The notes under the pieces: model-generated
What the model saw: only the letters and a program-made list of their open reading frames with translations
The model's database searches: none
What the model was told of the DNA's origin: nothing
Shown: piece by piece, positions 1 to 12,659 of the stretch
Layout of the letters: each line of letters starts with the position of its first letter
How positions within the stretch are numbered: the stretch's first letter is position 1
Translations under genes and position numbers: made by a program
From: Candidatus Hodarchaeaceae archaeon
GTDB taxonomy: Archaea; Hadarchaeota; Hadarchaeia; Hadarchaeales; Hadarchaeaceae
DNA length: 14,544 nt
Assembly (NCBI GenBank): GCA_030018135.1
Contig: JASEGJ010000026.1
Location: forward strand, 1-14,544
Direction of reading: 5' to 3'

Positions 1-65
1 CTCCATTGACGATGGATTATGGTTCAAAAATTAAAGCCTTATTTGAACGGCACCGCGCTATCTTT

Positions 66-80
66 CGCAAACTTTAAGTA
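66..80 (+). promoter_or_regulatory. Putative BRE/TATA promoter of the first pilin gene
   Basis: CGCAAA followed by CTTTAAGTA, about 35 nt upstream of GTG 115, which is preceded by GGTGA (105-109). Confidence 0.5.
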
Positions 81-114
81 TGCGAAAAAAGGTACTCTTT
101 ACTCGGTGAGAGAG

Positions 115-534
115 GTGATAAACGATAAGAGAGGGGTATCGCCGGTAGTTGGTACCATTCTATTGATCGCCGTGACAGTGGCGCTCGCAGCTGTGATCGC
201 GACCATCGTCGGCAGGATAGGCGTCCCAGCAAAGGCACCTTACGCGATCTTGGGCGTGACGGCAGAAAACGAAGGTGAAGAAAACGTTAAGATCACCATC
301 ATTCATAGGGGTGGGGACACCCTCGTTGTAGGAGAACTCAAGGTAAGGGGCGAAAAAAAAGATGGAGCGTTTAAGGATGTTCCTATAAATTGGGGGGACA
401 ACCTATTCGCGCCAGGTGAGGAAGCATCCGGCAGTTATACTTATGACAACTCGGAAGGAAAGATAATCAAGATAAAGGTTATCCATACTCCATCGGGACA
501 ACTGCTGCTCGATACCTCTGTCAGAGTAGAATAA
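115..534 (+). CDS. Archaeal type IV pilin (class III signal peptide, DUF1628-like N-terminus)
   Basis: DKRG|VSPVVGTILLIAVTVALAAVI prepilin cleavage motif plus hydrophobic helix; later ITIIHRGGD and IKVIHTPSGQLL motifs typical of archaeal pilins. Start moved from 19 to GTG 115 (RBS GGTGA); GTG 106 is an alternative. Confidence 0.9.
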   Translation: MINDKRGVSPVVGTILLIAVTVALAAVIATIVGRIGVPAKAPYAILGVTAENEGEENVKITIIHRGGDTLVVGELKVRGEKKDGAFKDVPINWGDNLFAPGEEASGSYTYDNSEGKIIKIKVIHTPSGQLLLDTSVRVE

Positions 535-751: not shown

Positions 752-1531
752 ATGAAGGTTAAGGCACTCGTGGGGGAGGAAAACGGGGTCTCGGTGGTCA
801 CCGGGGCAATAGTGGTCGCCGCCGTGGTCGCCATCGTCCTCTCCATCTTCCTCGCGTTTTGGATACCCCGTCAGGGGTACGAGAAGGAGCGCGAGCACGT
901 GGAGGAAATCAGGGGGAGCTTCTCAAAGCTGAAGTCCGCGATCGAGACGATCGAGCTGCTCGGCTCCAGGACGGTAGATGTTAAGATGAACGCGGACCCC
1001 ATCCCCATTTTCGGCGGGCCGGCGAAGGGGGGGCTCCTATCGTTCGATAATTCCGGCAGCTCGATCGGCTTTCAATTAAACAACAGCTACTACGTCGACC
1101 AGACATGGGTATACGAGAACGGGGCGGTGATATTGGTGCAGGGGGGCCAAAGCATCATGGCCTCTATGCCGGCGATGGTGGCGGCCGTCGACAACGAGCG
1201 CGAGAACATAAGGGTCGAGGTTCACGTAGTCCGGCTGAAGGGCAAGGGCACCTCGATCGGGGGGACCGGCACCCGCACCATCGTTATAGTGAGGGAAAAC
1301 GTCGTCGTCGAAAATTATCACGTCCCGAGCCTGACCATAGCAATAAACTCGGCCTACCCCGACGCTTGGCGGGAGTACCTCGGCCACCTCGAATCGAGGC
1401 TCAACGCTAAGGGCTACAACGCTGCGGTGGATGACCTCTCGATCACGATAGACGGGAAGGTCGAGGACGATGGGGTGAACGACATTTACTACTTCAGGAA
1501 GGTCATAGAGGTTGAAATCAGCATCGGGTGA
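752..1531 (+). CDS. Pilin-like protein with class III-like signal peptide (minor pilin candidate)
   Basis: EENG|VSVVTGAIVVAAVVAIVL N-terminus, amphipathic EREHVEEI helix, YYVDQTWVYENGAVILVQ motif; clear paralogue of the next gene. Confidence 0.8.
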   Translation: MKVKALVGEENGVSVVTGAIVVAAVVAIVLSIFLAFWIPRQGYEKEREHVEEIRGSFSKLKSAIETIELLGSRTVDVKMNADPIPIFGGPAKGGLLSFDNSGSSIGFQLNNSYYVDQTWVYENGAVILVQGGQSIMASMPAMVAAVDNERENIRVEVHVVRLKGKGTSIGGTGTRTIVIVRENVVVENYHVPSLTIAINSAYPDAWREYLGHLESRLNAKGYNAAVDDLSITIDGKVEDDGVNDIYYFRKVIEVEISIG

Positions 1532-1535
1532 GGCG

Positions 1536-3449
1536 ATGGGCGCTAGCTTCGGAATACGCTCGCAGGGGATTGTAGGGGAGAAGAGGGGCGTTTCCGTAGT
1601 ACTCGGCGCGATAATCGTCTTGGCGATCCTCTTCGTGGCCTCCTCCGCCTACATCGCGGCCTTGATCCCCAGCGAGGGGCACCAAAGGGAGCGCGAGCAC
1701 ATGGAGGAGGTGAAGGAAAGCTTCCTCGAGCTGAAGTCGGCGATCGATACGCTCGAGCTGCTCGGCTCCAGGACGGTAGACGTGAAGATGGCCGCCGACC
1801 CCATGCCCGTCTTTCAAGGCGCGAGGTCCGGCGGCCGCCTGTCGGTCGAGCCAGCTGGCGCCAGATTTCTCTACGCCGAGAGCTTGGGAACAGATAACAC
1901 AACTTCCACCAGCTATCAGGATAAAGTCGTCCTGACCTTCACGCCACCCAAGCCCCTAGATTACCTCATCATAGCCTCGGCGGAGGTTGCCGGAAGTGCT
2001 ACAACTCAAGAGATATGGGCAAGCTTGGAGGTCAATGGAGTCGTTCACCAAGAGCTCAGATACGCGGTAAATGATCCCTCGGAATGGTATCCGCTCAATG
2101 CCCTGAAAAGGGTCAAACTCTCCAGTCCTAGCGCGGTGAAAATTCGATTCAAAACGAACACGCCGGGCACGGCATCTATAAGAAGTGCCCGCATCGTGGC
2201 GTGGGCAATCACTTGTGAATACGCCGAAAATGAAAATGAGGCCTCAAGGGTTGGTGTGGAAAATAGGGTTACTCTAAAGTTTACTCCCTCGACGGCTGGC
2301 GATTACCTAATCATCGCGACGGCGAACATCACAAACACCTCAACCTCGAGGGATACGATAACTAGGTTGTTAATAAATGGAATCGAATACGCCGGCGCCC
2401 GGAGGAGGCCAACTTCGACCACCGCTTATTATTCCTTCGGTAACATCAAAAAAGTCACCCTGCAAGGCGGCTCTGAAAGTACGATTGTAATCCAATACGA
2501 ATCCGCAAAAGGAACGGCGAAAATTAAATATGCTCACGTCGCCGCGATCCGCCTCGACCAACTGCCAAATAGTTATTATGCAGAGAACGAGGCCCCGACA
2601 AAAACTCTACCAAAAAAGTGGATTGATAAGGTCGCTAATACTTACGTAAGCCAGGAGGACCATTTAATTCTTGGCACCATACATCTCAAAGAAACGGGGA
2701 TAGCTAAGTTCGTCGGTGCTAAATTGTTGGTCGATGGTATCACTTCCGAAAAACCGTATTTTAAGGGAGTCAGTGCTTGGATTTATGAAAGCACTTTAAT
2801 GATGGATAAAAAAAGTTTGGCAGCTGGCGGCCATCAAGATAAAATCCAATATTATGGAGAAAGCGCAGCCGAAGAAGCGAAGTTCGGAAGGCTCATGTCC
2901 TTGGAGGTACCCTCCCTCCACCACATGCGGCACGGCGTCATCCGCTTCGACATAAACAACGTCTACTACGTCGATCAGACCTGGGTGTACGAGCTGGGCG
3001 CCGTCATCCTGGCCCAAGACAACGCCAGCGTCATGGTCTCGAGATTCGAGGATGTGGGCTTGGTCGCCGCCGATAACGGGGACATCCGCGGCAACCCCCT
3101 GCCAGGCGATAACATCCGCGTCGAGGTCCACTTCATCAGGGTCAAGCGGTTCGATACCTCGGTGAGCTCGATGGGCACCTCCACGATCATGCTCGTCAAG
3201 GAGAACTCCCATTACGAGGTCGAGAACAGCCCCCGCGAGAACGTCACCATAAGGGTCAACTCGACGTACAGGGACGCCTGGGCTGAGTACCTCTCGTGGC
3301 TGGTGGGGGAGCTAAACGCCAGGGGCTACAACGCATCCTTCGACGACCGCACGCTCAGGCTCACCATTCTAGGCAAGAGGACATCCCCGGGCGTGAGCGA
3401 CATCCTCTACTACGAGAGGGTCACGGAAATAGAAGTGAGCCTCGCGTGA
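1536..3449 (+). CDS. Large pilin-like protein / candidate pilus adhesin with three-repeat insert
   Basis: EKRG|VSVVLGAIIVLAIL signal; N- and C-terminal parts align with 752-1531; ATG 1536 follows GGGTGAGG overlapping the upstream stop. Confidence 0.8.
   Translation: MGASFGIRSQGIVGEKRGVSVVLGAIIVLAILFVASSAYIAALIPSEGHQREREHMEEVKESFLELKSAIDTLELLGSRTVDVKMAADPMPVFQGARSGGRLSVEPAGARFLYAESLGTDNTTSTSYQDKVVLTFTPPKPLDYLIIASAEVAGSATTQEIWASLEVNGVVHQELRYAVNDPSEWYPLNALKRVKLSSPSAVKIRFKTNTPGTASIRSARIVAWAITCEYAENENEASRVGVENRVTLKFTPSTAGDYLIIATANITNTSTSRDTITRLLINGIEYAGARRRPTSTTAYYSFGNIKKVTLQGGSESTIVIQYESAKGTAKIKYAHVAAIRLDQLPNSYYAENEAPTKTLPKKWIDKVANTYVSQEDHLILGTIHLKETGIAKFVGAKLLVDGITSEKPYFKGVSAWIYESTLMMDKKSLAAGGHQDKIQYYGESAAEEAKFGRLMSLEVPSLHHMRHGVIRFDINNVYYVDQTWVYELGAVILAQDNASVMVSRFEDVGLVAADNGDIRGNPLPGDNIRVEVHFIRVKRFDTSVSSMGTSTIMLVKENSHYEVENSPRENVTIRVNSTYRDAWAEYLSWLVGELNARGYNASFDDRTLRLTILGKRTSPGVSDILYYERVTEIEVSLA
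1866..2913 (+). repeat. Three tandem ~112-119 aa domains inserted in the pilin-like gene
   Basis: YAE motifs at 1872, 2220, 2577, each followed by related segments DKVVLTFTP..DYLIIA, NRVTLKFTP..DYLIIA, DKVANTYV..DHLILG; absent from the paralogue. Confidence 0.75.
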
Positions 3450-3450
3450 T
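3391..3450 (+). repeat. Direct repeat copy 1: last 18 codons and stop of the pilin-like gene
   Basis: 53/60 identical to 3891-3950, offset exactly 500 bp. Confidence 0.95.
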
Positions 3451-3525
3451 TTTTTAGGTTGATGAATGAAGAGCAGGCTCTTTCGTTTCGCGTGTTCGAA
3501 ACGTTTCGCTGACAAAACTTCGATT

Positions 3526-3843
3526 TTACCTATCTAAACTTTGGCAAATTAATTTCACAGGATTGCCACCTGTTCGTTTAGAAATCCTCTCTTTTAGGAG
3601 AGGTTTGATCGTATTATACTCCACCAGATCGACTTTCCTCCCCAAGGCCTCTTCGATTTCTAGCCTAAGTCCAACGAAGTCGAGTAGGCTGATGTCGCTT
3701 TCGATTTCCACCAAAATATCGATGTCGCTGTCCTCTTTTATCTCCCCCCGAACGCATGACCCGAATATCCCCGCTTTTTTTATCCCATAACGCCGCAGGA
3801 TCGGAAGGATCTTTCGTTTTATTTCCTCGATATTTGCTCCCGT
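3526..3843 (-). pseudogene. Minimal nucleotidyltransferase (MNT antitoxin), damaged, no HEPN partner
   Basis: Frame reads (ACG)GANIEEIKRKILPILRRYGIKKAGIFGSCVRGEIKEDSDIDILVE..LGRKVDLV with the GS-x10-DxD motif. ACG (3843-3841) directly follows an in-frame TAA; removing one base at 3582-3584 gives a typical ERILNEQVAIL* end at 3555. Confidence 0.8.
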
Positions 3844-3890
3844 TTATCCACCATTTCTTCATATGGTCCGGTAGGTAAAAAGATTGGCTC

Positions 3891-3950
3891 GCGTGAGCGA
3901 CATCCTTTACTACGAGAGGGTCACCGAGGTCGAGGTGAGCCTCGCCTGAT
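3891..3950 (+). repeat. Direct repeat copy 2: orphan 3' end of the pilin-like gene (attR-like)
   Basis: Encodes VSDILYYERVTEVEVSLA* versus VSDILYYERVTEIEVSLA* in the gene; not attached to an upstream homologous ORF. Confidence 0.95.
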
Positions 3951-4208
3951 CTTCAAGGATCCTGAATCGAGAATAGGCCCCCCCTGCCGTTCAGTTCCAC
4001 TTTTAGCTTATTCGAAACGTTTCTGCCGATCGAAGCGTCGATTTCTGGCGATGTCAGATCGACGGCCAATATTTCAACGCCGTCCAACTTAAAGCCGCTT
4101 ATTGACATCCCGCGAGGGGGTCGTTCTCTGATGGAGGTATTGGATATTTTTTCGGTAATTAAGAAATTCTTAAATATGGGGGGCGAAGTATTTTTAATGG
4201 TGATGTAA

Positions 4209-4484
4209 ACGGCAGATACCTACATCTGTAAGGTAACTTCGGTTGGCCAAATAACCCTCCCGAAAAAAGTTAGGGAGAAGTTAGAAGTTGGGGAAGAGGA
4301 CTACATTATCCTAGAGAGGATTGGAGACACCTATTTCCTAAAAAAAGTCGAGATCGAAAGAGACATTTTGAAGCGGGTCCGAAGAAAGGTAAAGAAAAGC
4401 GGGATAACGAGAGAAAAGCTGGCTGAGATCCTTGAGAAGGCATCCGAGGACGTGTGGAGAAAAACTCGTGAAAGCGTTCGTTGA
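4209..4484 (+). CDS. AbrB/MazE/VapB-family antitoxin (ACG start or nonsense-damaged 5' end; missing from ORF track)
   Basis: (ACG)ADTYICKVTSVGQITLPKKVREKLEVGEEDYIILE, classic AbrB swapped-hairpin motif; 91 aa; GGTGA 5 nt upstream; overlaps the PIN gene start. Confidence 0.85.
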   Translation, partial: TADTYICKVTSVGQITLPKKVREKLEVGEEDYIILERIGDTYFLKKVEIERDILKRVRRKVKKSGITREKLAEILEKASEDVWRKTRESVR

Positions 4485-4899
4485 CGCCAACACCATCTTG
4501 AGCGGGTTGTTATTTGCGGGCAACGAGGCGGTCTTGCTGGAACTCGGGAGGCTGGGGGCCCTGCACTTGGTGACCAACGAGTACGTGTTGAAGGAGGTGC
4601 GGGCGGCCCTAGAAAGGGAGGATTTTCACCTCGCGGAGAAGGAGCAGCGGTACTTGATGAGGTATGCTTTGGAGTGCATTTCCATTGCAGGGGACCCGTC
4701 AAAGGAGGATATCAAGAAGCATTACGACCTGCTTTGGGACAAAAAGGATTTGCCCGTCGTCGTTGGGGCAAAAAGGGAGGACTGTGAATTTTTGGTCACT
4801 GGCGATAAAGAATTGCTCTCTGGAAAGGTCAAAAAATTTGTAAATTCGATCACGACATTCGAGCTGTTGAGAAGGCTAATGAAGGAAAGGTCTCCATAG
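4468..4899 (+). CDS. PIN-domain (VapC-like) toxin
   Basis: KAFVDANTILSG, LKEV, DKKDLPVV, FLVTGDKELL acidic PIN motifs; GTG 4468 overlaps the antitoxin end. Confidence 0.9.
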   Translation: MKAFVDANTILSGLLFAGNEAVLLELGRLGALHLVTNEYVLKEVRAALEREDFHLAEKEQRYLMRYALECISIAGDPSKEDIKKHYDLLWDKKDLPVVVGAKREDCEFLVTGDKELLSGKVKKFVNSITTFELLRRLMKERSP

Positions 4900-4905
4900 C
4901 TTTAA

Positions 4906-4965
4906 GTCGAGCACCAGTTCGACATCCGCGGTTGCGAGCGGAGATGTACGATAATCCGCCGACTT
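4906..4965. repeat. Degenerate repeat / bulged hairpin downstream of PIN toxin 1
   Basis: GCACCA..GAGCGG..TGT(A)CGATAATCCG resembles 5705-5750; TCG-ACATC-CGC pairs with GCG-(GA)-GATGT-(A)-CGA. Confidence 0.5.
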
Positions 4966-5001
4966 ATGCGCGTCGGATGATTTCTAAGGATTTTGAGGCT
5001 T

Positions 5002-5028
5002 ACCCAAAACTTAAATGGGTTTAACCCA
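5002..5028 (+). promoter_or_regulatory. TATA box overlapped by inverted repeats (probable antitoxin autoregulatory operator)
   Basis: ACCCA (5002-5006), CTTAAA, TGGGTT-T-AACCCA (5016-5028) about 20 nt upstream of ATG 5048. Confidence 0.5.
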
Positions 5029-5047
5029 CAAGATTTTATGGGATAAA

Positions 5048-5284
5048 ATGACCTCTGTCGTCGACGGGAGAGGGAGGGTAGTCCTACCCAGACACGTGAC
5101 CGAGGCGCTCGAATTAAGCGAAGGGGACATGATCGCATTTGAGAAGGTCGAGGACCACTTTGTGATTAGGAAGGTAAGGGCGCCCGAGAGGAAACTGGAG
5201 GAAATCATGAGTTGGAATCCAAAGCGTATAGGAAAGCCGGAGCCAGTTTCGCCGAAGGAGATGAAGGAGATCTGGAAATCTTGA
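5048..5284 (+). CDS. AbrB/MazE/VapB-family antitoxin
   Basis: VVDGRGRVVLPRHVTEALELSEGDMIAF AbrB motif; stop overlaps the TTG of the PIN gene. Confidence 0.9.
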   Translation: MTSVVDGRGRVVLPRHVTEALELSEGDMIAFEKVEDHFVIRKVRAPERKLEEIMSWNPKRIGKPEPVSPKEMKEIWKS

Positions 5285-5700
5285 TCGGCCTAGACTCGAA
5301 TATCTTGGCCTATGCCCTCGACCCGACTTTTCCGGAACATCGGCATGCTAAAAAAGCCATTTTGGAGCTCGATAGTTGGCACATAAATCCAACCGTAGTC
5401 CACGAGGTTTATCACACCCTAGTCTTCAAGAGGAAAATGGAACCTACAGCGGCCGAGAGGAAGCTCATTGAATTTTTGGGCGACGAAAGGACATTTTTCG
5501 CGAACCAAACTAAATCGACCTCACTCTTTTCCCTGAGCCTCGCGAGCAAATTCGGCCTCGGAGGTAGGGATTCGCTGACCATAGGATGTTACCTGCACGC
5601 AAAGGTAAGTAAAATGCTTACGCACGATGAGGAAATTCTTCAGCTAAAAGCTTTGAAGTTCAGGGGTAGGGGAGTTGAATTCACGGACCCGATCAAATAG
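5281..5700 (+). CDS. PIN-domain (VapC-like) toxin
   Basis: IGLDSNILAYA, VVHEVYH, GGRDSLTIG, LTHDEE motifs; TTGA 4-nt overlap with the antitoxin. Confidence 0.9.
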   Translation: MIGLDSNILAYALDPTFPEHRHAKKAILELDSWHINPTVVHEVYHTLVFKRKMEPTAAERKLIEFLGDERTFFANQTKSTSLFSLSLASKFGLGGRDSLTIGCYLHAKVSKMLTHDEEILQLKALKFRGRGVEFTDPIK

Positions 5701-5704
5701 GGGG

Positions 5705-5750
5705 GTCCGCGCACCACTCGTGAGCGGGTTTGTCGAATAATTCGTGATTT
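5705..5750. repeat. Degenerate repeat downstream of PIN toxin 2
   Basis: GCACCACTCGTGAGCGGGTTTGTCGAATAATTCG aligns with 4911-4958 apart from a ~13-nt gap. Confidence 0.5.
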
Positions 5751-5979
5751 TTTAAATGACTGCCGGACATTTTTATGAAACTGTCATTTCATTGTGGGGG
5801 CCGCGTCGAGGTTGGGGTACAAATATTAAGGTGGTCCCCATATATGTATCCAATATTGAGCCGCCCTTTAGCGACCACCGTACTGCATAGCTTGGAACCT
5901 TTTCCGCACCACTTCAGGATCCGGCAAAGGGCGGGAGCAACAATTTCAGATATTTCCCAAACATCAAAACGCTAAGGCA

Positions 5980-6392
5980 TCAAACGTTTTTCAAGCCTAT
6001 CCCGATGACGACGTCGAGCAGCACCCCCTTCGACGGCGAATGGATCACCTGACCCTCATCGTCCTGCCGCTCGGATTTCCCCCGTACTCATAGGAGCCCC
6101 AGCATTCGTCGCCGGGAGAGAAGGGCCCATCCCACCTCATGGCGACGCTCCTCAGATACCCCCTGGAGTCCTCGGCGAGCACCTCGAGCTCATTGCCGCT
6201 CAGAGTAGCTCCGCCCCTGTGGATCAGGAGGATCCTCACAACCTCGCCCCCCTCCCGCTCCGCCTCCGCCATCAGGATCGCGTGCGGCGCCTTCGCGAGC
6301 GCGATTATGGTGGCGATTATCAACGATGAGGCGATGACGATGATGCCCACGGCGACCATCATTAGCAAATCCCTTTTGCTGCCCTCGATCAA
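5980..6392 (-). pseudogene. Paralogue of the 115-534 pilin, frameshifted near the C-terminus
   Basis: AKAPHAIL, ILLIHRGG, FSPGDECWGSYEY match AKAPYAIL, ITIIHRGG, FAPGEEASGSYTY. Stop at 6045; adding one G near 6048 continues VIHSPSKGVLLDVVIGIGLKNV*, matching VIHTPSGQLLLD. Confidence 0.8.
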
Positions 6393-8290: not shown

Positions 8291-9442
8291 CTAAAGTTGC
8301 TCGATCACCGCCTTGATGCGCTCTACCGCCAGCTCGATGTTCTCAGGAGTGTTAGCGTACGAGATGCGCAGGTAGCCCTCGCCGTGTCTCCCGAAGGCGG
8401 TGCCCGGCGACACCACAACTTTGGCCCGCTCGAACAGGTAGTCGGCGAGCGCACTTGAACTCATGCCCAGATCTGAAACATTCGGGAACGCGTAAAATGC
8501 GCCCCTCGGCGTCGGGCACCTAAAGCCCTCGATCGAGTTGAGCAATCTGACCGTCAACTTGCGCCGTCCATCGTAATCGGCGATCATCTCCCGGACGCAG
8601 TCCTAGGGCCCCCGCAACGCCTCGACGGCCGCCCACTGCGTCGGCGTGCTCGTCGACGAGGTCACATTTTGATGCACCTTGAACATGGGCTGCATCAGCT
8701 CCTTCGACGCGCAGAGGTAACCCACGCGCCAGCCCGTCATCGCGTAGGTCTTTGAGAAGCCGTTCACGAGTATGACCCGCTCGGCGGCATCGAGGGTCGG
8801 CAAGCAGACGTGCTCAAAACCATCGTACACAAATTTTTCGTAAATCTCGTCGGATACGACAAGGAGGTCTCGCTCGCTGGCGATGTTGAGGATCTCCCGC
8901 AACGGCCGCTCGGGCATGACCGAGCCGGTGGGGTTGCTCGGGAAGTTAAGCAGGATCATCCTCGTGCGATCCGTGATCGCCGACTCGATTTCCTCAGGAC
9001 GCATCCAGAAGTCCGGCTCGCTCAGGCGGACGCCTACGGGCACCCCACCGGCTATCCGCACCGCCGGGCCGTATGTCATGTAAGCGGGGTCCGGCACGAG
9101 TACCTCATCGCCCGGCTCCAAGAAGGCCGCGATGGCGCAGAATATCGCCTCCGTGCCGCCGACCACCACCATGACCTCGCTATCGGGATCGTAATCTAAG
9201 CCGTACTCGCTCGAGTAGCGCTCGGCTATAGCCTGCCTAAGCTCGAGGATGCCCGTGTTCGGCGAGTAATGCGTCTTGCCCTCGTCCAGTGCTCTCTTGG
9301 CCGCCTCGCGTATGTGCTCCGGCGTCGTCACATCTGGCTCACCCACGCCTAGGCTTATGACGCCCGAAGAGCCCGTCGCTAGGTCGAAGAGGCGCCTGAT
9401 CACCGATGGTTGAATCTCCCGCAGATGTCTTGCCTCTCTCAT
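8291..9442 (-). pseudogene. Class I/II PLP-dependent (aspartate-type) aminotransferase with one in-frame TAG
   Basis: SLGVGEPD, NFPSNPTG, SDEIYE, NGFSKTYAMTGWRVG; TAG at 8605-8603 in GP*DCVREM, and the same frame continues through GAFYAF and GEGYLRISYA to 8291 (383 codons from ATG 9442). Confidence 0.88.
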
Positions 9443-9514
9443 CCTACGACCGCCATCCACAAAGTTGCGGCGGCGCTTAAAGATTTTTGGGCTTCCATTG
9501 TGGCACAAATTTTG

Positions 9515-10717
9515 CTAGCCGCCGAAATCGCGCGCCACCTGTTCAAGCACCTCGACGAGCTTCTCGACCTCCCCCTCGAAGTTGTAATAGTGCACGGAGG
9601 CTCGAACCGTGCCCTCGACGCCGAGGTGGCGCATCGTCGGCGCAGCGCAGTGATGCCCGGAGCGAACGGCGATGTTCGCGAGCTCGTCAAGCATCGAAGC
9701 GACATCGTGGTGATCCAAGCCGCGAACGTTAAAACTGACCACACCCCCGCGCCGCTCGAGGTCACCCGGCCCATAAACTTCGACATGTTCGATGTCGGCA
9801 ATTTGGAGCATCCGCCGCGTAAGCTCGCGCTCGCGCTCGGCTATGCGCTCGATGCCTATCTCCAGCACGTACTCAGCTGCCCGTCCGAGCCCGATGATGC
9901 CTGGTATGTTCGGCGTGCCGGCGTCGAAGACCTGCGGGGGCTCAACTAGCTTGCATGAGTGTTCGTCCACGCTTTCGACTATGCCCCCGCCAAGCAGGAG
10001 CGGCTCCAGCTCGTGAAGGTGATCCTCGCGCACGTACAGGAAGCCGGTGCCCTGCGGCCCGAGCAGCCCCTTGTGCCCCGGCGCCGCGAGGAAATCGCAT
10101 TCCATCGCCCTGACATCGACCGGCATGTGGCCGACCGCTTGGGCAGCGTCGACGAGGAAGAGTACGTCATGTTCTCGCGCGAGCTTGCCGACCTCCTCGA
10201 CGGGCTGAATGCTGCCTATGGCGTTCGAGATGTGGGTCATCGTTATGAGGCGGGTTCTATCGTCGATGACGGCCTCGATCTCGCTCGGCTCGATCAAGCA
10301 ATCCCTCGTGGCGCGCACGATCTCGAGTTCGATGCCTTTCGTGCGCTCGAGGCGTTGCCAAGGTATGAGGTTGCTGTGGTGCTCGAGCACGGTGGCGATG
10401 ACCTTGTCCCCCTTCCGCAGCCCCAAGCCCTGCGCGACCATGTTTATGGCCTCGGTGGCGTTCTTCGCGTACGCGATCTCCTCCGGCTTGGCGCCTATCA
10501 CCCGAGCGAGCTTTCCGCGGGCGGCCTCAAAGGCGTCCGTCGCGCGTCGCGTCGCGCGATGCAAGCCACGCCCCACGTTCGCGCTGAACTCCTGAAAGTA
10601 CTCGAGCATCGCATCCAGCACGGGCTGGGGCGTGGGCGTCGTCGCGGCACTGTCGAGATAAATTATGCCGGTTTGCAAAAATGGAATTTCGGCCCTGACC
10701 TGCTCGACGGTTTTCAT
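9515..10717 (-). CDS. sufS: SufS-type (group II) cysteine desulfurase
   Basis: IYLDSAATT, EHHSNLIPW, VDAAQAVGH, PGHKGLLGP (PLP lysine), VRSGHHCA catalytic motif, RASVHYYN. Start ATG 10717 preferred over 10762. Confidence 0.9.
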   Translation of the reverse strand: MKTVEQVRAEIPFLQTGIIYLDSAATTPTPQPVLDAMLEYFQEFSANVGRGLHRATRRATDAFEAARGKLARVIGAKPEEIAYAKNATEAINMVAQGLGLRKGDKVIATVLEHHSNLIPWQRLERTKGIELEIVRATRDCLIEPSEIEAVIDDRTRLITMTHISNAIGSIQPVEEVGKLAREHDVLFLVDAAQAVGHMPVDVRAMECDFLAAPGHKGLLGPQGTGFLYVREDHLHELEPLLLGGGIVESVDEHSCKLVEPPQVFDAGTPNIPGIIGLGRAAEYVLEIGIERIAERERELTRRMLQIADIEHVEVYGPGDLERRGGVVSFNVRGLDHHDVASMLDELANIAVRSGHHCAAPTMRHLGVEGTVRASVHYYNFEGEVEKLVEVLEQVARDFGG

Positions 10718-10799
10718 GCCAAGTCTCTCCCGCCCTCTCCGTTTGGTCCTTTCGACCGCCATTATAAGTTTCTCCAGCTCATCGATATAACTTAGGCAT

Positions 10800-11291
10800 T
10801 CATTCGGCAGGGTTGTGATGGCTGAGCTGCGCGAGAAGGGCCGCCGAGAGTTCGTCGACAGCCCCCTTCACCTTTTCGCTCATCCTCGCCCCCATTCCCG
10901 TGCTGCTCGGCTGAATTCCGAGCAATACGACTTTTGCCGTGGTCTGGGCGCGCAAATAACCCGCGAGCAGGGAGAGCGGCATGGTATGGGTGGAGATCGG
11001 TCGGCCCGTGATGGCCTCCGGCTCGCTTAATATCGTGGCGCCCGGCTCGGAGCCGAAGTCCGTGGCATCGATGAGGATTACATGGGAGGGTTCAAACTTT
11101 CTTATCTCCGCTGTAAAGTTCTCCGGGGCCACGCCCGCCTCGATTAAGAGCACATTCGGCGAGCTCAATCCCCGCCTAAGCCTTCGCACCACCTCGATGC
11201 CCGCCGCATCGTCGCTCCGCATATCGCTACCTATGCCCACTATCGCCACTCGGGTTGCACCCTTGAGCAAGGATGAGAGATCCAGCTTCAA
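10800..11291 (-). CDS. hycI: Hydrogenase maturation endopeptidase, HycI type
   Basis: IVGIGSDMRSDDAAG, GVAPENF, LIDATDFG, ISTHTMPL, LLGIQP. Confidence 0.88.
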   Translation of the reverse strand: MKLDLSSLLKGATRVAIVGIGSDMRSDDAAGIEVVRRLRRGLSSPNVLLIEAGVAPENFTAEIRKFEPSHVILIDATDFGSEPGATILSEPEAITGRPISTHTMPLSLLAGYLRAQTTAKVVLLGIQPSSTGMGARMSEKVKGAVDELSAALLAQLSHHNPAE

Positions 11292-11292
11292 T

Positions 11293-11994
11293 TCATCGCC
11301 TCAAAAACCGATCTAGGATGAGGTCCTCTTGGCTTGCCCCAACCCGCTTGAGCATCGCCATCGGCCAGTCCACCCTTCCCACCTCGGCGACGGTGTGGGC
11401 GTCCGTACCTATGCTCAACTTAACCCCCTCCCGCAGACAGGCCTCGAGCAAACCTTGATCTGGCACGCGATACTTGGAGTTGAGCTCGATCGCGACCCCC
11501 CTCTTGGCCGCCGATTCGGCGAAGGCGGCGATATCCTCGCGCGAGAGATAGGGCGCAAGGTAGCGATGGAGCTGAAACGGGTGCGCCAGGACATCGGCCC
11601 GCTGGTGTTCCATGGCCTTCATTATTGCGTGAAAATATGCCCTCGCCAACTCCGATGGTTCGCGGCTGAAAATTCTAAGCCTGTGTATGCCCATGATTAT
11701 GATATCGAACCTGTCGATCAACCTTTCGTCCACATCGATTGCCCCATCGGCGTCAACGACGTTGGCCTCTATGCCCGCCAACACCGGGATCTCCGCGTCC
11801 TCCCTTGCCGCCGTGACATCCTGTAACATTGGGACTATCTTGTGGGGCGAGATGCCAACCGACAACTCTGGCCCATGGTCGGTAATCGCCACCGCCATCA
11901 AGCCGCGCGCCTCGGCCGCCTCTACCATCGCTGCTGCCGCGCTTTCCCCGTCGGAATATATCGTGTGTACGTGAAAATCGAATTTTGGCAACAC
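11293..11994 (-). CDS. PHP-domain metal-dependent phosphoesterase
   Basis: DFHVHTIYSDG, AITDHG, GIEAN, LAHP, IELN, IGTDAH; GTG 11994 follows GGGGTG. Confidence 0.9.
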   Translation of the reverse strand: MLPKFDFHVHTIYSDGESAAAAMVEAAEARGLMAVAITDHGPELSVGISPHKIVPMLQDVTAAREDAEIPVLAGIEANVVDADGAIDVDERLIDRFDIIIMGIHRLRIFSREPSELARAYFHAIMKAMEHQRADVLAHPFQLHRYLAPYLSREDIAAFAESAAKRGVAIELNSKYRVPDQGLLEACLREGVKLSIGTDAHTVAEVGRVDWPMAMLKRVGASQEDLILDRFLRR

Positions 11995-12071
11995 GGGCGC
12001 ACCCCTTAACCTACGATCTAAGAAGGGGGGACTCAATTAATAACTTCAGATGTTTTGCGTCGAACAAAATG

Positions 12072-12300
12072 GCGGGGATATCGACCCTTCCGCTACTATT
12101 TCGATAGCATTCCGAATCTCGACCACTTCGGTCGTCCATCGCTTTTTCACGTTGGGGTCTTTCTCCCACAGTCGTTGCCGCGCAACCCTGCTTCCGGGAG
12201 CTTATCCACAGCCTTCCCCGGTTTTTCGCCCGGGTTTTTCCGTGGCTCCCCGTTGCCCGTAGGCTCCGGTTCGGCCACCTCTGTGGGCTTCTGTCCCCGC
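12072..12300 (-). ncRNA. Putative structured non-coding RNA, family unassigned (~230 nt)
   Basis: Ends pair (GCGGGGA/TCCCCGC); internal helices CCCACAG/CTGTGGG, GACCC/GGGTC, GGGAGC/GCTCCC, CCCGG/CCGGG, GTTGC/GCAAC, CGACC/GGTCG; cUACGg tetraloop; A-rich linkers; TATA at suitable distance. Confidence 0.7.
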
Positions 12301-12322
12301 AAATGTTACTGGAGCAAGGCGC

Positions 12323-12340
12323 TATAAATAGTTCATTTCG
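12323..12340 (-). promoter_or_regulatory. BRE/TATA promoter for the putative ncRNA
   Basis: Minus strand CGAAATGAAC-TATTTATA ends 22 nt before the first paired G at 12300. Confidence 0.6.
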
Positions 12341-12435
12341 ATTGCCAAAAGTGTTGGCCGATTAAAACAAAGACTCGCAGAACCTTGGAGGGACAAGCAT
12401 AAAATACGAAAACGGCGCCAAATTAACCGATTGTG

Positions 12436-12659
12436 ATGTGCTTAGCGATTCCCGGTAAGTTATTAAAAGTGGATGAAAAGGTTGCAGTGGTGGACTTCGG
12501 CGGCATACGTAGAAATGCGCAGCTCGATTTGCTTGAAGATGTGCATGAAGGCGATTAATCGTGCATGTCGGCTATGCGATTCAGACATTGAACAAGGAAG
12601 AAGCGGAGAAGACAGTAAGGCTATGGGTTAAAATCGCCAAAGGTGAGGCCGGTGCATGA
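12436..12659 (+). pseudogene. hypC: HypC hydrogenase chaperone, frameshifted (missing from ORF track)
   Basis: MCLAIPGKLLKVDEKVAVVDFGGIRR..EGD* (TAA 12556-12558); IVHVGYAIQTLNKEEAEKT resumes in another frame at 12558; the expected GDYVIVHVG implies a 4-nt loss. Confidence 0.9.

Follow-up and report, generated by a model that had tools for sequence, protein, structure and literature searches.

A duplicated pilin gene end around a decayed antitoxin gene in a hadarchaeal genome: a candidate scar of an insertion that carried a replacement gene end

Background

Why should the end of a gene be present twice, with a broken antitoxin gene in between? The question arises in a 14,544-nucleotide stretch of DNA from an archaeon of the phylum Hadarchaeota (hereafter the window), where the final codons of an archaeal type IV pilin-like gene recur downstream of the gene itself, and where the interval holds the remains of a minimal nucleotidyltransferase (MNT) gene akin to the antitoxin MntA, followed by a toxin-antitoxin (TA) island. 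An initial annotation, made from the sequence alone, had proposed an integrase-less one-gene cassette that uses a pilus gene as its attachment site and brings a replacement for the gene end that it interrupts. On balance, our analyses lean towards reading the structure as the scar of a Campbell- or att-type insertion of DNA carrying a replacement gene end, and they place it beside similar arrangements at other gene ends of the phylum.

The window corresponds to the entire 14.5-kb contig C18 of a metagenome-assembled archaeal genome (G000; 1.1 Mb in 45 contigs, 92.9% complete). The genomes compared with it are designated by G-numbers, and loci or metagenome contigs by L-numbers, L038 being a metagenome contig. 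Strain-level data came from two public runs of hot-spring metagenomes stored as contigs, each containing 0.04 of the window's words; because their tables were nearly identical, the two runs were counted as one data set. The strain contigs were short and were placed on the window at a likeness of at least 80%.

Results

The end of a pilin-like gene recurs exactly 500 nt downstream

A repeat search located the two copies at 3391-3478 and 3891-3978, a spacing of exactly 500 nt (Table 1). Their coding parts (3391-3449 and 3891-3949, stop codon included) agree at 52 of 59 bases, or at 53 of 60 when the next base is counted, with a single mismatch in the first 34 nt (3391-3424) and six in the following 25 nt, just as the initial annotation had described. 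The near-identical 34-nt block is likewise conserved in L038, with one mismatch. The repeat is nevertheless longer than the 60 nt first reported: in a gapped local alignment of 3391-3527 with 3891-4045 the score was 93, against 17.4 +/- 2.3 and a maximum of 23 in 100 shuffles, and homology covers about 140 nt. The duplicated unit thus comprises the gene tail (T) and some 80-95 nt of downstream sequence (D), 137 nt in one copy and 155 nt in the other.

The copies have diverged by approximately 12% in their coding part and 35% in their non-coding part, and the longest exact words common to both measure 16-17 nt. D1 and D2 share the 13-nt word TTCGAAACGTTTC, for which there is no third site in the 1.1-Mb genome. 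Extending the homology leftward to about 3872 gave no significant result, and a search for a third tail copy behind the TA island (window 5650-6100) reached a score of 24, compared with a shuffle maximum of 25. A hairpin can be drawn within the gene end of both copies (fold z -2.4 and -2.1) and is not kept in G003.

Table 1. Coordinates of the features discussed, as positions in the window
Feature	Position	Strand	Description	Evidence or remark
Pilin_N gene	19-534		Same cluster as the DUF7289 genes	Pfam
DUF7289 paralogue	752-1531		259 aa, upstream of the 645-aa gene	
Pilin-like gene	1512..3449	+	Archaeal type IV pilin-like gene, 645 aa, intact, DUF7289	Pfam, translation
Copy 1 (T1)	3391..3449	+	Final 18-19 codons and stop of the functional gene	3391-3424 near-identical core; 3425-3449 diverged
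D1	3450..3527		Non-coding, behind copy 1, homologous to D2 with indels	GC 0.40
Segment missing in related strain	3456..4152		About 700 nt	Bounded by 7-nt direct repeat ATTTTTT at 3449-3455 and 4146-4152
MNT gene	3555..3854	-	MntA-like minimal nucleotidyltransferase gene, disrupted	Stop-to-stop open reading frames, NCBIfam, tblastn
MNT upstream region	3863..3890		Abuts left edge of copy 2	Would be the element-side arm in an att or Campbell insertion
Copy 2 (T2)	3891..3949	+	Orphan gene end, 18-19 codons and stop	One I-to-V difference
D2	3950..4045		Non-coding, behind copy 2, homologous to D1	
TA island	4153..5701	+	Low-GC toxin-antitoxin island	Pfam, NCBIfam
AbrB/VapB-like	4209-4484	+		
PIN	4432-4899	+		
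MazE-like	5015-5284	+		
PIN	5212-5700	+		
Conserved genes	from 6544 onward		Preceded by a small pilin-like gene, on the opposite strand, after the TA island	

Both copies bear the mark of a working gene end

The gene that ends in copy 1 is whole. Its product matches DUF7289 with 30.9 bits (the Pfam cut-off being 27), has a hydrophobic N-terminus (GVSVVLGAIIVLAILFV in the translation) and stops at the same terminal residue as the orthologues of G013 and L038. Read in frame, six of the seven coding differences between the copies are synonymous and one exchanges I for V, an outcome of at most one amino-acid change that was reached in only 0.00125 of 20000 simulations with seven random substitutions each. 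Frame, stop codon and length (18-19 residues plus stop) are kept in both copies, as in the ends of G013 and L038. Since the differences are so largely synonymous, both copies must have evolved as working gene ends in separate lineages, and since both carry this mark of purifying selection, which the initial annotation had already suspected, one of them should have arrived from another lineage. Duplication in place followed by drift does not predict such a synonymous bias.

Copy 2 is today an orphan, with an in-frame stop codon six codons upstream. It belongs to the orthologue type (...DILYYERVTEVEVSLA), like the ends of G003, G013 and L038, and not to the type of the upstream paralogue. All eight of its distal codons end in G or C, as is usual in the gene body (GC3 0.89); in the distal part of copy 1 three of eight codons end in A, and the sequence runs on into the low-GC D1 and MNT gene (GC 0.44 in the latter). 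This codon and GC pattern hints that copy 2 may be the old, displaced end and copy 1 the end now in use.

Within the pilin-like gene the middle part stands apart: between about 2245 and 2877 its GC content is 0.42-0.48, against approximately 0.60 in the flanks, and blastn gives no alignment of it with the G003 orthologue. This portion has the look of a surface region that was exchanged or evolves fast.

The interval contains the remnant of an antitoxin gene

The only recognisable gene between D1 and copy 2 is the MNT gene, as initially annotated, and this gene proved to be disrupted. The motif GS..RG...SD.D is present in its translation, and the NCBIfam model MntA_antitoxin matches it with an E value of 9.5e-14 and 51.2 bits, under the cut-off of 60; the Pfam NTP_transf_2/Polbeta matches on its 62-aa open reading frame (ORF) also fall under their cut-off. 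The main frame (3843..3553) lacks a start codon, the ATGs at 3862 and 3854 belonging to other frames, and the C-terminal LNEQVAI with its stop lies in a shifted frame. Accordingly, tblastn searches with the MNT proteins of G023 and G004 recovered segments in two frames. Unbroken reading frames are seen in its nearest relatives within the order, the G004 gene (74% identity), which has a HEPN gene downstream, and the G023 gene (59%); beside the window's MNT gene no HEPN partner was found, the flanking ORFs 3369-3533(-) and 3953-4219(-) matching no family. The latter ORF was considered as a decayed MNT gene and rejected.

What remains here is the MNT member, frameshifted, of a former MNT-HEPN (type VII) TA pair. 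As only this remnant is left, the interval would now be a decaying scar rather than an active one-gene element, and the sequence does not support the one-gene cassette that had been postulated as a working mobile unit.

A related strain lacks the MNT segment

A 1025-nt contig from the strain data matches window positions 4157-4858 with 30 differences in 702 bases (about 96% identity). Leftward of 4157 it is joined, through five other letters, to position 3453, and continues along 3410-3453, so that the region of the gene stop is linked to the upstream region of the VapB-like gene, and D1, the MNT gene, T2, D2 and the following 105 nt or so are skipped. The further 273 nt on its left were not placed on the window, and this tail may or may not belong to a full gene. 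The MNT segment is therefore an indel between close strains. A transposon was considered as the nature of this 700-nt segment and dropped, as no terminal inverted repeats could be seen by eye.

On a second strain contig, position 5701, one base past the last PIN gene, is followed by 34 other letters and then by 3315 onward. Behind the island there may be either one more copy of the pilin tail or a junction of circular or tandem type. Copies of the pilin-gene tail thus bracket the TA island in the related strain, and the two joints (3453 to 4157 and 5701 to 3315) suggest that the gene end is a repeated recombination point with TA genes as its cargo.

Relatives carry other genes behind the same gene end

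When 41 genomes were searched with the C-terminal 189 residues of the pilin-like protein, 21 gave a match, one of them G000. The closest orthologues are those of G013 (80%), G003 (79%) and L038 (86% identity at the DNA level). In these three, convergent DHH-like and FIST-like genes follow the pilin-like gene, and synteny resumes at a KaiC-like gene. In none of the three does a second copy of the gene end where copy 2 does, so the full tandem paralogue ending at 3949 that was to be looked for in relatives, as an observation speaking against a cassette, is absent from them. No FIST homologue was found in G000, and DHH is represented there only by a 40% paralogue elsewhere, which indicates that the TA block replaced these genes in this lineage.

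A degenerate tail pattern, allowing up to two mismatches, matched seven of 65 genomes of the order. Among metagenome contigs the tail pattern had one match, L038, with the standard downstream genes and no cassette, and a protein search of metagenome contigs with an alignment of three C-terminal domains returned 197 pattern matches, zero of them confirmed. In viral contigs there were no matches either to the pilin-tail pattern or to the tail pattern of the membrane-protein gene described below. D2 and the next 105 nt, a stretch that separates D2 from the TA island and in which no gene is recognised, gave only chance-level matches against 65 other genomes of the phylum, and a megablast of the whole window against a plasmid collection returned zero matches.

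Similar layouts occur at other gene ends of the phylum

When G000 was compared with itself, 19 local direct repeats of at least 40 nt within 6 kb were detected. Most of those inspected are paralogues or internal repeats, and three, on contigs C45, C14 and C1, resemble the pilin case. On C45 (L039 3325-5379) a membrane-protein gene of 412 aa has its end repeated at a distance of 816 nt, with a pair of VapB-like and PIN genes in front of the second copy. The orphan end (L039 5293-5379) differs at 27 of 87 nt, with seven amino-acid changes; both copies run through the same eight codons to the stop, and frame and length are kept. Searching 66 genomes of the phylum with the last 140 residues of this membrane protein revealed clear orphan ends in four (G000, G002, G019 and G021) and one more, unclear match at a contig start in G061.

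The surroundings of these orphans differ from genome to genome. In G002 (L072, G002:C13, 1-2460) the gene end is followed by a 446-aa surface-protein gene, the orphan end and the same VapBC pair, while in G007 the VapBC genes come directly after the membrane-protein gene and no orphan is present; since the sequence behind the G002 orphan matches that behind the G007 gene, a newer insertion has displaced the older end. The G021 orphan (L054, G021:C1, 3595-3684) sits on a separate contig inside an island of 31-40% GC and differs from the real end in that genome at 17 of 90 bases and one residue; that of G019 lies at L056 (G019:C109), about 552-629. All four orphans start at the same codons, CAC TGC ATG GG, with different upstream flanks and cargo, and the flanks share short motifs only (AGTTAGCTTTC in G021 and G002, GTGAGTT in G000 and G021).

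The C1 locus (L041, C1 16570-20938) is a classical integrated element, in which a 323-aa tyrosine integrase (PF00589 and PF16795) is placed between tRNA-like repeats of 141 nt, 78% identical with a diverged middle; ARAGORN called no tRNA on these repeats. At C14 (L040, about 9400-12570) it is the 5' ends that are repeated: three glycosyltransferase-like beginnings of about 100 nt from the ATG, one of them with a 1-nt deletion, alternate with a nucleotidyltransferase and other small genes in a mirror image of the tail repeats.

In this group of hot-spring archaea the layout of gene end, cargo and orphan end turns up with notable frequency. By itself, the pilin locus would be a commonplace scar of integration or recombination around a dead antitoxin gene, and its value is that of an entry point. 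In these small genomes TA pairs and other small cargo are found repeatedly between a working gene end and a displaced foreign copy, and one target gene shows the same boundary in different genera with no recombinase in cis. If an enzyme acting in trans, or homologous recombination, indeed moves such units, this would explain the spread and persistence of TA genes in streamlined archaeal genomes, and orphan gene ends would offer a simple search rule for the flexible gene pool in metagenome-assembled genomes.

Recombinases are absent from the contigs concerned

None of the 21 ORFs of the window matches a recombinase family in Pfam, as had been noticed from the sequence. G000 has three matches to PF00589, on contigs C33, C22 and C1 and none on C18, and no match to the serine recombinase family PF00239. 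PF00589 was likewise missing from the contigs that carry the membrane-protein gene or its orphans (G000, G002, G007, G019 and G021), and two of these genomes, G002 (87% complete) and G007 (95% complete), have zero PF00589 matches altogether. Of 66 genomes of the phylum, 44 match PF00589 at E <=0.001. The other 22, some of them 94-95% complete, have none, which would be odd if every archaeon has a Xer-type enzyme.

Discussion

Insertion of DNA carrying a replacement gene end

Different evolutionary scenarios might explain the structure. The one that we consider somewhat more probable than the others taken together is an insertion of the Campbell or att type. Under this scenario, incoming DNA from a related archaeon would have carried its own gene end with the sequence downstream of it (T-D) beside a cargo, originally an MNT-HEPN (type VII) TA module that has since decayed. 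Recombination within the shared gene end would then have placed the cargo between two ends while keeping the gene whole, in the order gene-T1-D1-cargo-T2-D2. In Campbell terms this would be a single crossover with a circle composed of T-D-cargo; in att terms, attB x attP would yield B-O-P' ... P-O-B', and a near-identical block of 34 nt followed by diverged homology would be consistent with O followed by P' in one copy and B' in the other. Both forms predict a fixed left edge of the orphan, derived from the circle, homology running rightward from there, and selection on both ends. We infer a direction in which copy 2 is native and the distal part of copy 1, D1 and the MNT gene were imported, probably by way of a circular intermediate. 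As for the enzyme, an integrase acting in trans and the host's homologous recombination appear about equally likely.

Several observations weigh against this reading. No allele was found whose missing part matches the boundaries of the repeat; the empty-site search that the initial annotation had recommended yielded a sole variant, lacking about 3456-4152, which is neither a simple empty site nor a pop-out. The tail copy of the strain starts at 3315 and not at 3391, which leaves the pilin gene without support for one constant point of crossover, or for the role of attachment site that had been assigned to it. Copy 1 is not demonstrably foreign, as the natural end of L038 agrees with it at 55 of 59 bases and with copy 2 at 51 of 59, and that natural end, too, has A- or T-ending codons in its distal part. 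The pilin locus is a single case, two tail matches occurring in G000 only among 65 genomes; its contig, part of a metagenome-assembled genome, is without a recombinase, and the MNT segment is known from this assembly alone.

A more far-reaching possibility, which we put forward only tentatively, is that the locus belongs to an integrase-free family of mobile cassettes in Hadarchaeota, each made of a host gene-end copy, a small TA or surface-protein cargo and a short conserved arm. Homologous recombination by the host would pop a circle out between gene-end copies and in at the same end in related cells, and addictive cargo would secure retention; alternatively, an unrecognised recombinase might move the units in trans. 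The fixed start of four orphans in four genomes, the shared flank motifs and the different cargo at the same point are in line with such a family, as is the lack of any tyrosine recombinase match in two of the genomes concerned.

Alternative origins of the duplicated end

The same final structure could have arisen by a one-off, homology-facilitated illegitimate recombination, in which a related strain contributed a linear piece of DNA (gene body, T1, D1 and MNT) that was anchored at one end by homology of the gene body and joined at the other 57 nt before the stop, the recipient's own end being left behind as copy 2, with no circle, att site or element involved. This origin, possible if doubtful in our view, would account for the absence of a recombinase, for the mosaic gene with its low-GC middle unalignable to G003 and for a strain tail that starts elsewhere, at 3315, as random joints would; moreover, seven letters of the tail region differ between 3335 and 3384 in that strain, against about 96% likeness in the TA island, so that recombination with foreign alleles seems frequent at this locus. 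Random illegitimate joints do not predict, however, that the four independent orphans of the membrane-protein gene share their first codons. The MNT segment fills precisely the space from where D1 stops to where T2 starts, as expected of an inserted circle of T-D-cargo. A tandem duplicate of the pilin-like gene, whose second full copy ended at 3949 before its body was deleted and the MNT gene landed there, is unlikely. DUF7289 genes do occur in tandem (752-1531 upstream here, and three to four copies in genomes of family f2), and the homology of D1 and D2 fits a duplication of the gene with its downstream sequence, but G003, G013 and L038 have no copy at that place, near-synonymous divergence is unexpected of a dead copy, at least three events are needed, and a close strain is without the segment although the copies differ by 12% (coding) to some 35% (non-coding).

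Still less probable is an assembly artefact, with one gene end represented by two strain variants that were fused in the contig. In its favour, the window makes up one complete contig (14.5 kb) of the 45 in a metagenome-assembled genome, and similar samples hold several strain variants. Against it, exact words common to the copies do not exceed 17 nt, so that they would cause no loop in a k-mer graph; some molecule must carry the MNT upstream region joined to the start of copy 2; and the same layout is met on other contigs and in other genomes. In Neisseria, pilS copies are silent donors for antigenic variation, and the partial repetition of a surface-filament gene's 3' end close behind the expressed gene might recall such a gene-conversion donor; here copy 2 comprises about 19 codons with one conservative residue changed, so that no variation is stored, and the variable middle (2245-2877) is not copied, for which reasons we give this origin hardly any credence. 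An integron-type cassette, with the MNT gene bounded by attC sites and moved by IntI, is very improbable as well, even if attC clusters have been reported in some Hadarchaeota and addiction modules are common cargo of cassettes, in the excerpted account (PMC9668308), and a unit of 500 bp would have the size of a cassette. What is repeated is a gene end and its downstream sequence, not an imperfect palindrome; the folding of D1 and D2 does not surpass that of shuffled sequences (z -0.25 and -0.26); a search of 3300-4300 against Rfam, which may hold no attC model, gave one chance-level match only; and no IntI is nearby, the contig having no PF00589 match.

Comparison with known systems

The CIMEs of streptococci are flanked by att sites, lack an integrase and are thought to derive from larger elements by deletion, being defined by the att sites of a known ICE integrase able to move them in trans. 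The locus resembles them in its attL/attR-like repeats and the absence of recombination genes of its own, and differs in being archaeal and in that no cognate integrase is known. In Rhs, CDI and T6SS effector loci, a new gene end recombines in together with one or more adjacent small genes and pushes the old end downstream as an orphan, and in Rhs and CDI the ends encode different toxins with matching immunity genes. Copy 2 likewise keeps homology to the main gene; unlike those systems, the two ends here differ by one residue and the cargo is an unrelated TA remnant. The cargo itself shares with the HEPN-MNT (MntA/HepT, type VII) systems its nucleotidyltransferase core and its best family match, MntA, but has no HEPN gene and a frame that is broken twice.

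Archaeal elements are known to integrate in the 3'-distal part of protein-coding genes and to supply a new stop codon, as at 14 of 68 sites in Thaumarchaeota, and re-use of a site builds arrays of such elements, both according to the excerpted text of one survey (PMC6563490). As in those elements, a gene end and its second copy behind the insert form a direct repeat in the window, the insert supplying the end with the stop. The thaumarchaeal elements, as that excerpt portrays them, measure kilobases, mostly carry an integrase or a casposase and have att sites of 13-69 bp (PMC6563490); the pilin scar has a cargo of 0.36 kb, no recombinase and a diverged repeat of about 140 nt, and no matching empty site was found for it. 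CALINs, the integrase-less arrays of integron cassettes, have been reported in Archaea with one- or two-gene cassettes that are often addiction modules, to go by the excerpt of the report (PMC9668308). Small cargo and the lack of a nearby integrase are common to both; the repeats at the pilin locus, in contrast, are copies of a host gene end with no attC-like structure found in them.

Given a tiny insert free of recombinases, a long and diverged repeat and no matching empty site, we assign the locus to no named family of elements. The kind of scar is already known and is new for this phylum; a limited literature search turned up no description of such scars in Hadarchaeota.

Other observations on the window

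Upstream of the AbrB/VapB-like gene of the TA island lies a palindromic word (TTAAGAAATTCTTAA, 4157-4185), and a similar word precedes its relative in G056; it is likely to be an autoregulation operator. Relatives of the window's VapB-PIN pair (66-69% identity) are placed directly behind a tRNA-Thr(CGT) in G023 (L077, G023:C4, 1148-1974), and the G056 relative is flanked by direct repeats of about 50 nt (L075, G056:C167, 14-62 and 941-989). Further along the window, a class I/II aminotransferase gene (8291-9508, minus strand) is interrupted by an in-frame TAG at about 8588-8590, which may be either a genuine nonsense codon or an error.

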